The notes under the pieces were generated by a model that saw only the letters and a program-made list of their open reading frames with translations, searched no databases and was not told the origin of the DNA. From NCBI RefSeq assembly GCF_055900595.2, contig NZ_CM148325.1: a stretch of 64,000 bases of DNA, one strand, 5' to 3'. A program made the translations under genes and the position numbers. This document shows positions 17,981-35,962 of this stretch, piece by piece. Positions within the stretch are counted from its first letter, which is position 1; each line of letters opens with the position of its first letter.

Positions 17981-18056
<76 letters not shown>

Positions 18057-22040: not shown

Positions 22041-22056
22041 TGTGATTTGTATCACA
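22041..22056 (+). promoter_or_regulatory. CRP binding site upstream of azuC
   Basis: TGTGA-TTTGTA-TCACA, perfect match to both CRP half-sites; about 85 nt upstream of the azuC ATG. Confidence 0.7.
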
Positions 22057-22138: not shown

Positions 22139-22225
22139 ATGAAACTGCGCAAAATCCTGAAAAGTATGTTCAATAACTATTGCAAGACGTTCAAAGACGT
22201 ACCGCCAGGCAATATGTTCCGATAA
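22139..22225 (+). CDS. azuC: Small membrane-associated protein AzuC (28 aa); mRNA also acts as the dual-function sRNA AzuCR
   Basis: ATG at 22139 translates MKLRKILKSMFNNYCKTFKDVPPGNMFR then TAA; below the ORF-track size cutoff; followed by an intrinsic terminator. Confidence 0.8.
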   Translation: MKLRKILKSMFNNYCKTFKDVPPGNMFR

Positions 22226-22226
22226 T

Positions 22227-26557: not shown

Positions 26558-29910
<3,353 letters not shown>

Positions 29911-29916
29911 GAGCGG

Positions 29917-30345
29917 TTAATCACCCGTAAGTGGAACTAACAGCACATCGACCTCACTTGAGGCAATCACTCTTTTCGCCGAGCAGGATGCTCGCGAAAA
30001 GAAACTGTGATTGTGATTACCGCAAATCACCAAATCGAAATGATGTTTGTGACATACTTCCAGAATATGTTCGCTTAACTCACCGTAGGCAATAAACGTC
30101 TTGTCAACGGGATACCCCGCATCCTGAATTAACTTATCAAGAAAGCTTTGCGTTTCTTCTTGCATCACGCTGCGTAAATCTTCAAGCATCGGCGCGGCTA
30201 ATTGATTGTACATTTCCGGGTCGGAAGCGAGAGTAATTAAACTGATGTGTCCCTTTACTGGCCTGGCGATAGATACCGCTTTTGCCAGCAGTTGCTGACT
30301 TTCCGGTGTAACCGCAACAGCGACAAGAATATTGCTATAGCTCAT
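29917..30345 (-). CDS. uspC: Universal stress protein C (UspC/YecG)
   Basis: Track ORF 142 aa; matches K-12 UspC. Confidence 0.9.
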   Translation of the reverse strand: MSYSNILVAVAVTPESQQLLAKAVSIARPVKGHISLITLASDPEMYNQLAAPMLEDLRSVMQEETQSFLDKLIQDAGYPVDKTFIAYGELSEHILEVCHKHHFDLVICGNHNHSFFSRASCSAKRVIASSEVDVLLVPLTGD

Positions 30346-30848
30346 AACCTGTTCCTTATTCTGTGAACTTCAGGTGACATTAAAGCTTTACTCCTAATGG
30401 AGAAACGACGCAATCCCAACTCGGTCAAACAGGTAAATATTAGTCTGATTATTAGTAAAGACAATTAATCAATCACTCCCGGTGATCATATAATTTCAAA
30501 TGTAATTATAAGAAAATAGTGTACTGATTCTCCGCATTAAACAAGTGGTTAATATATGTAAAACATTTCATTTAACATTATGTTGATTGTTGCCTTTCTT
30601 TGTATTTAATTAGTTTGTTGTGCGGTAAGTGTCTGTTTAAAAATAGCTTATCTGGTATTGCATGAAAGTGATTATTTATAGCAGATGATTATTTACGGTG
30701 AGTTATTTTAACTGTGCGCAACATCCCATTTCGATTATTCCTGTTTCATTTTTGCTTGCTAGCGTAGCGAAAAACTTTTTAACAGATTGAAATACACCCA
30801 AAACAAAAGTATGACTTATACATTTATGTTAAGTAATTGAGTGTTTTG

Positions 30849-30864
30849 TGTGATCTGCATCACA
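30849..30864 (+). promoter_or_regulatory. CRP binding site of the flhDC class-1 promoter
   Basis: TGTGA-TCTGCA-TCACA, perfect CRP half-sites about 270 nt upstream of the flhD ATG; the surrounding 780-bp AT-rich region 30346..31124 is the flhDC regulatory region. Confidence 0.8.
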
Positions 30865-31124
30865 CATTATTGAAAATCGCAGCCCCCCTCCGTTGTATGT
30901 GCGTGTAGTGACGAGTACAGTTGCGTCGATTTAGGAAAAATCTTAGATAAGTGTAAAGACCCCCTTCTATTTGTAAGGACTTATTAAACCAAAAAGGTGG
31001 CTCTGCTTATTGCAGCTTATCGCAACTATTCTAATGCTAATTATTTTTACCGGGGCTTCCCGGCGACATCACAGGGTGCGGTGAAACCGCATAAAAATAA
31101 AGTTGGTTATTCTGGGTGGGAATA

Positions 31125-31475
31125 ATGCATACCTCCGAGTTGCTGAAACACATTTATGACATCAACTTGTCATATTTACTACTTGCACAGCGTCTGATTG
31201 TTCAGGACAAAGCGTCCGCTATGTTTCGTCTCGGCATAAATGAAGAAATGGCGACAACATTAGCGGCACTGACTCTTCCGCAAATGGTTAAGCTGGCAGA
31301 AACCAATCAGCTGGTTTGTCACTTCCGTTTTGACAGCCACCAGACGATTACTCAGTTGACGCAAGATTCCCGCGTTGACGATCTCCAGCAAATTCATACC
31401 GGCATCATGCTCTCAACACGCTTGCTGAATGATGTTAATCAGCCTGAAGAAGCGCTGCGCAAGAAAAGGGCCTGA
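31125..31475 (+). CDS. flhD: Flagellar master regulator subunit FlhD
   Basis: Track ORF 31116..31475 trimmed to ATG 31125 ([20 protein letters not shown]...); matches K-12 FlhD (116 aa). Confidence 0.95.
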
Positions 31476-31477
31476 TC

Positions 31478-32056
31478 ATGAGTGAAAAAAGCATTGTTCA
31501 GGAAGCGCGGGATATTCAGCTGGCAATGGAATTGATCACCCTGGGCGCTCGTTTGCAGATGCTGGAAAGCGAAACACAGTTAAGTCGCGGACGCCTGATA
31601 AAACTTTATAAAGAACTGCGCGGAAGCCCACCGCCGAAAGGCATGCTGCCATTCTCAACCGACTGGTTTATGACCTGGGAACAAAACGTTCATGCTTCGA
31701 TGTTCTGTAATGCATGGCAGTTTTTACTGAAAACCGGTTTGTGTAATGGCGTCGATGCGGTGATCAAAGCCTACCGTTTATACCTTGAACAGTGCCCACA
31801 AGCAGAAGAAGGACCACTGCTGGCATTAACTCGTGCCTGGACATTGGTGCGGTTTGTTGAAAGTGGATTACTGCAACTTTCCAGCTGCAACTGCTGCGGC
31901 GGCAATTTTATTACCCACGCTCACCAGCCTGTTGGCAGCTTTGCCTGCAGCTTATGTCAACCGCCATCCAGGGCAGTAAAAAGACGTAAACTTTCCCAGA
32001 ATCCTGCCGATATTATCCCACAACTGCTGGATGAACAGAGAGTACAGGCTGTTTAA
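31478..32056 (+). CDS. flhC: Flagellar master regulator subunit FlhC
   Basis: Track ORF 192 aa; zinc-binding cysteines (CNCCGG...CSLC); matches K-12 FlhC. Confidence 0.95.
31987..32013 (+). promoter_or_regulatory. sigma28 promoter of motAB-cheAW, located inside the flhC 3' coding region
   Basis: TAAACTTT-N11-GCCGATAT, about 170 nt upstream of the motA GTG and 43 nt before the flhC stop. Confidence 0.75.
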
Positions 32057-32114
32057 CTGATACGGTGAGGCGCAACATTCCAGCAGCGGTAACGACGTAC
32101 CGCTGCTTTTTTTT
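32020..32114 (+). ncRNA. Candidate MotR-like sRNA from the motA 5' UTR (sigma28 promoter to intrinsic terminator)
   Basis: Promoter at 31987-32013 is followed about 70 nt later by AGCAGCGG...CCGCTGCT hairpin plus TTTTTTTT (32082..32114), which also terminates flhDC; ends are approximate and rest on published MotR descriptions as recalled. Confidence 0.4.
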
Positions 32115-32182
32115 GCCCCAATCGCGCGTTAACGCCTGACGACTGAACATCCTGTCATGGTCAACAGTGGAAGGATGATGTC

Positions 32183-33066
32183 GTGCTTATCTTATTAGGT
32201 TACCTGGTTGTTCTCGGTACAGTTTTCGGCGGTTATTTGATGACCGGTGGAAGCCTTGGAGCACTCTATCAACCCGCTGAACTGGTGATTATTGCCGGTG
32301 CAGGGATTGGGTCGTTTATCGTCGGCAATAATGGCAAAGCGATTAAAGGCACGCTGAAGGCGCTGCCGTTGCTGTTTCGTCGCTCCAAATACACCAAAGC
32401 AATGTATATGGATCTGCTGGCTCTGCTTTATCGGTTGATGGCAAAATCGCGGCAGATGGGGATGTTTTCGCTGGAACGTGATATTGAAAATCCCCGTGAG
32501 AGCGAGATCTTCGCCAGCTACCCACGCATCCTCGCGGATAGCGTCATGCTTGATTTTATCGTCGATTATCTGCGCCTGATTATCAGCGGTCACATGAACA
32601 CCTTCGAAATCGAAGCCCTGATGGATGAAGAGATTGAGACGCACGAAAGCGAGGCAGAAGTCCCGGCGAACAGTCTGGCGCTGGTCGGGGACTCACTTCC
32701 GGCGTTTGGTATTGTTGCGGCTGTAATGGGGGTCGTTCACGCGTTAGGTTCAGCCGATCGTCCTGCCGCCGAGCTGGGTGCGCTTATCGCACATGCGATG
32801 GTGGGGACTTTCCTCGGCATTTTATTGGCTTACGGATTTATTTCCCCATTAGCGACTGTTTTACGTCAGAAAAGCGCCGAAACCAGCAAAATGATGCAGT
32901 GCGTCAAAGTCACTCTGCTTTCTAATCTGAACGGTTACGCACCGCCTATCGCCGTTGAGTTTGGTCGCAAAACGCTCTATTCCAGCGAACGTCCGTCGTT
33001 TATTGAACTGGAAGAGCATGTGCGTGCGGTGAAAAATCCGCAACAACAGACGACAACCGAGGAAGC

Positions 33067-33070
<4 letters not shown>
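32183..33070 (+). CDS. motA: Flagellar motor stator protein MotA
   Basis: Track ORF 295 aa, GTG start; matches K-12 MotA. Confidence 0.95.

Positions 33071-35962
<2,892 letters not shown>

Follow-up and report, generated by a model that had tools for sequence, protein, structure and literature searches.

The window analysed here, a single stretch of DNA of 64,000 nucleotides taken at its full length, carries otsB-otsA on the plus strand, uspC on the minus strand and flhD again on the plus strand, followed by flhC, motA, motB and cheA. The order otsBA, uspC, flhDC, motAB, cheAW is the same as in the RefSeq-annotated E. coli strains ATCC 8739, Z1323HEC0393 and E308, and uspC is identical to the annotated WP_000122426.1 of these three strains, with zero sequence differences along the stretch. 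Between the divergent uspC and flhD, and followed by flhD and then flhC-motAB-cheAW, lies the interval that concerns us (Table 1), as is expected of the flhDC regulatory region. A sequence-only reading of this DNA had described positions 30346-31124 as an AT-rich uspC-flhD interval, and the gene ends reproduce these coordinates exactly. The interval measures 779 bp and has a G+C content of 35.2%, which falls to 33.7% in the part upstream of the transcription start site and compares with 50.1% for the whole window. Over its whole length, it is homologous to the characterised K-12 flhDC region, with which it is collinear at about 98.6% identity outside the insertion element IS1H. An Rfam scan of positions 29500-33500 at E ≤ 0.1 gave zero matches.

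Table 1. Features of the flhDC regulatory region and its flanking genes, with positions in the window and, where given, relative to the flhDC transcription start site
Feature	Position	Strand	Relative to start site	Basis or remark
uspC CDS (universal stress protein C)	29917-30345	-		ORF list; divergent from flhDC
uspC-flhD intergenic region	30346-31124			779 bp, 35% G+C, without insertion sequence
Private 1-bp insertion of T, creating CATTTCATTT	30571	+	-357	Alignments
IS1 site of NCTC11121 with 9-bp duplication, intact here	30719-30727		-209 to -201	Same-haplotype strain
IS1H target of MG1655, CATTTATG, intact here	30821-30828		-107 to -100	Alignment with MG1655
IS5 hot spot TTAA, intact here	30829-30832		-99 to -96	Position from PMC5100188
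CRP-cAMP core TGTGATCTGCATCACA	30849-30864		-79 to -64, centre -71.5	Predicted binding; class I activating position
-35 hexamer TTGTAT	30893-30898	+		3/6 consensus matches; inferred from start-site geometry
-10 hexamer TACAGT	30916-30921	+		4/6 consensus matches, 17-bp spacer; inferred from start-site position
flhDC transcription start site	30928	+		Placed by homology; equals MG1655 1,978,395
flhDC 5' untranslated leader	30928-31124	+		197 nt
Equivalent of AsflhD antisense RNA	30928-31146	-		Homology only; MG1655 annotation 1,978,176-1,978,395; PMC9600491
flhD CDS	31125-31475	+		116 aa; ATG at 31125; identical to annotated flhD WP_001295647.1
flhC CDS	31478-32056	+		192 aa; identical to annotated flhC WP_001291603.1

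The flhDC start site of MG1655 is annotated 198 nt upstream of the flhD ATG. Counted from its homologous position in the window, the IS5 target TTAA falls at -99 to -96 and the CAP site at about -72, in agreement with two independent published landmarks. The leader is one nucleotide shorter than the 198 nt of K-12, since this haplotype, like that of ATCC 8739, lacks one T at +116. The putative promoter hexamers, placed by homology only, match 7 of the 12 consensus positions. A consensus scan for promoters and terminators returned a single match, on the minus strand and below the yield of shuffled sequence, and missed the flhDC promoter, as would be expected for an activator-dependent promoter that matches at only 7 of 12 positions. 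For a weak, CRP-dependent promoter, such a scan is therefore uninformative.

Insertions at this locus have been studied in K-12. IS elements inserted at approximately -100 to -476 relieve repression and raise the motility of poorly motile stocks, insertions as far upstream as -476 increase flhDC expression, and the region has an IS5 insertion hot spot at -99 to -96 (PMC5100188). The IS element inside the interval that defines a disrupted, and thereby activated, flhDC allele is absent from the window. The interval aligns end to end with its counterpart of 778 bp in ATCC 8739 and holds no extra DNA of the size of an IS, and it is collinear with the MG1655 interval once IS1H, of 768 bp, and the duplicated 8-bp target CATTTATG are left out of the latter. 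Collinearity with both ATCC 8739 and the IS1H-free MG1655 bears out the earlier statement that neither IS1 nor IS5 lies in the interval, and the comparison with MG1655 is one of the checks that had been proposed for it. A transposase or inverted-repeat sequence within 30346-31124 had been named as what would overturn that statement, and neither was found. The only open reading frames of at least 40 aa within the interval are two chance ones, of 40 and 42 aa, and a search for direct and inverted repeats of at least 12 bp across positions 30200-31300 found none. Furthermore, a similarity search with IS1H gave no match in the interval and, elsewhere in the window, only insignificant matches of at most 23 bp (E ≥ 0.14). 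A comparison with IS terminal repeats gave no close match but carries little weight; the absence of an IS rests on collinearity. The locus had also been called an uninterrupted ancestral configuration. Uninterrupted it is; 'ancestral' does not apply in the strict sense, given the private additional T at -357.

To place this state among E. coli, we drew on 5,426 complete genomes. The interval was matched in 5,421 of them at 80-100% identity (best 99.9%), with all but 21 at 95% or above, and 5,271 of the 5,421 matching genomes hold at least 80% of it in one place, a count that includes IS1-split copies joined by the tool. Among 60 records sampled at even spacing, three carry IS1 (mostly K-12 derivatives) and two are truncated. 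An uninterrupted interval, found in most of the 5,421 matching genomes, is therefore the usual state of E. coli and does not distinguish the strain. In strain E05, one of the truncated records, a deletion bounded by IS1 runs from the flhDC upstream region into tar, with the loss of flhDC, motAB and cheAW.

Judged by its haplotype, the strain is not K-12 and is of a phylogroup-A type, as exemplified by ATCC 8739. The 24 kb around the interval are about 99.98% identical to many phylogroup-A-like isolates, and the interval itself differs from the IS-free MG1655 sequence at 11 positions.

Three single-base changes are private to the window, at positions that are otherwise invariant in about 5,400 genomes. 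The first is the additional T at 30571, where the window reads TTT and every other genome reads TT; the surrounding 80-mer has no exact match in the 5,426 complete genomes. Across about 26 kb it is the sole indel relative to the two nearest genomes and so does not belong to a series of homopolymer errors. The second lies in motB (33067-33993), where G to T at 33506 replaces Gly147 of MotB with valine; none of 5,374 matching genomes contains the 80-mer around this position exactly, and Gly147 belongs to a stretch, LVQEGLRIQIID, that the solved MotB structures of E. coli-derived and Salmonella origin share without change. This substitution could affect stator function, and an intact flhDC promoter is therefore no guarantee of motility. 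The third is A to G at 18032, in the T-stem of a tRNA-Gly(GCC) gene (17981-18056), which turns an A-U pair into G-U. None of the 21,620 places matched in 5,425 genomes has this G, and ARAGORN still calls the tRNA despite the change. To find three such unseen changes within 15 kb suggests that the strain sits on a long private branch, that it is a mutated laboratory lineage or that the sequence contains errors.

We consider it improbable that all three are real mutations of the lineage, that the two in the motility cluster arose from motility selection and that the promoter has been subtly remodelled. If this were true, the additional T would tune the silencing of flhDC and Gly147Val would alter the stator anchor, both under motility selection. 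A narrower proposal concerns the interval itself, in which the additional T would create an altered flhDC allele by affecting how the upstream silencing DNA is spaced or shaped and would thus change flhDC expression, an effect likened to that of the IS insertions and small indels found in selected K-12 motility mutants. Such an allele would be consistent with the absence of the T from every complete genome, with its location between -100 and -476, a range in which insertions have a stimulating effect on flhDC, with its being the only indel over so long a stretch, which makes a systematic homopolymer error unlikely, and with the presence of a second private change, MotB Gly147Val, in the same motility cluster. 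However, the gain of one base disturbs an AT-rich tract of 580 bp only very slightly next to an IS of 0.8-1.2 kb, no known regulator site could be linked to -357, and the third private change falls in an unrelated tRNA gene, which points to a long private branch or to sequence errors rather than to motility selection. An altered allele is, in our judgement, very unlikely, and any functional effect of the T at -357 is unlikely. This change and Gly147Val would matter only if they were shown to alter motility.

The reading that we prefer, that of a native and uninterrupted regulatory region, also concerns its CRP site. A perfect site had been reported at 30849-30864 from the sequence alone, and TGTGATCTGCATCACA stands exactly there, matching TGTGA-N6-TCACA at every defined position. 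Shuffling gives an expectation of 0.09 such cores per 64-kb window, and two are observed in this one. Class I CRP sites are centred near -61.5, -71.5, -82.5 or -92.5 from the start site; with the start site taken as 30928, the core is centred at -71.5. The cAMP/CAP site of flhDC has been published at about -72 (PMC9600491).

The 38-mer around the perfect core occurs exactly in 4,175 of the 5,426 complete genomes (77%) and a 65-mer carrying it in 3,153 of the 5,426 searched, whereas the 65-mer with the TCACG half-site of K-12 is exact in only 403 of them. Besides MG1655, we aligned five strains of diverse backgrounds (ATCC 8739, O145:H28, WP4-S18-ESBL-09, a soil isolate and B2 ST131). The core is conserved among these related genomes, and its perfect form is the majority allele and the norm of the species. 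The K-12 half-site looks like a derived minority variant, since the base at -64 is A in all five of the other strains and G in MG1655 alone.

It is extremely unlikely that the palindromic core matches the pattern by chance and does not work as a CRP site: AT-rich intergenic DNA can yield partial CRP-like matches, and the flanks of this core (TTG...CAT) depart from the extended 22-bp consensus, but far less than one perfect core is expected in a stretch of this size, this one sits at the published CAP position and is conserved across phylogroups, and the K-12 version, with its one mismatch, was reportedly found by Soutourina and colleagues in 1999 to be required for flhDC transcription. The second perfect core of the window, TGTGATTTGTATCACA at 22041-22056, lies about 85-100 bp upstream of azuC, a small-protein gene at about 22140-22226, and is probably the CRP site of this catabolite-controlled gene.

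The perfect core also occurs together with an upstream IS. In NCTC11121, a non-K-12 culture-collection strain of the same haplotype and with the same perfect core, an IS1 with a duplication of 9 bp occupies -209 to -201, and NCTC9966 gives the same two-piece IS1 match. The capture of IS elements upstream of flhDC is therefore not confined to K-12. Because NCTC11121 acquired an upstream IS1 with the same core in place, a perfect core evidently does not remove the need for IS activation. The idea that K-12 needs IS activation on account of its weaker CRP site was rejected on the same observation.

As for how the native region would work, CRP-cAMP at the core centred on -71.5 may recruit RNA polymerase to what appears to be a weak sigma-70 promoter. 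Transcription would start at about 30928 from TTGTAT/TACAGT in dependence on CRP-cAMP at 30849-30864, and this dependence would put flagellar synthesis under catabolite control. Repression acting on the DNA upstream of flhDC has been described in the literature for H-NS, LrhA, OmpR, RcsAB, Fur, IHF, MatA and YjjQ. The approximately 580 bp of AT-rich upstream DNA form the known platform for silencing and regulation by H-NS, LrhA, OmpR and other repressors, a platform that IS1 or IS5 insertions disrupt in laboratory strains, and the leader of 197 nt carries the post-transcriptional control region. As the upstream platform is whole, both the native repression and the native activation of flhDC should operate in full; CRP binding, promoter strength and the motility phenotype are predictions.

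At the level of sequence, the testable features that define flhDC regulatory regions and class I CRP sites are all present, which supports the identification of the region as the flhDC regulatory region, uninterrupted and with a perfect CRP core where CRP is known to activate. Very probably, then, the window holds the native, uninterrupted DNA with the promoter and control sequences of flhDC, from an E. coli that is not K-12 and resembles phylogroup A. The finding is confirmed as already known biology that had been read correctly, and as the ordinary state of E. coli. The strain has the standard IS-free flhDC control region, so its motility would be governed by native regulation and not by an IS activation event, and the value of the result goes little beyond annotation. 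It does highlight that K-12 is an atypical reference for the flhDC locus, with TCACG as a minority allele and several leader and upstream bases that are absent from the five aligned strains.

The closest known counterparts are ATCC 8739 and related phylogroup-A strains (E308, Z1323HEC0393 and HS-like), which share with the window the same length class, the order of landmarks, the perfect core and the 197-nt leader. All 778 of the 778 bases of the ATCC 8739 interval are identical in the window, which adds one T at 30571. The sequenced stock of MG1655 shares with the window its genes, promoter and start site and the position of its CRP site. It differs in carrying the 768-bp IS1H, whose insertion duplicated 8 bp at -107 to -100, in the half-site TCACG where the window has TCACA (-64), and in nine other small differences; MG1655 bases at -218, +36 and +54 are absent from the five other strains (window positions 30710, 30963-30964 and 30981).

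IS-activated flhDC alleles selected on motility agar carry IS5 at -99 to -96, or IS1 or IS5 at -166, -303, -315 and up to -476. They have their target region in common with the window, in which the target sequences are intact, and the window, being without an IS, represents the unactivated parental configuration. Class I CRP promoters of the lacP1 type, with CRP at -61.5, likewise combine a single site for a CRP dimer with a weak sigma-70 promoter downstream of it. The flhDC core would lie on the same face of the helix, as -71.5 is one helical turn upstream of -61.5, an activation geometry that is predicted here from spacing. Unlike promoters of the lacP1 type, however, the flhDC site is set in an unusually long AT-rich region that is bound by many repressors.
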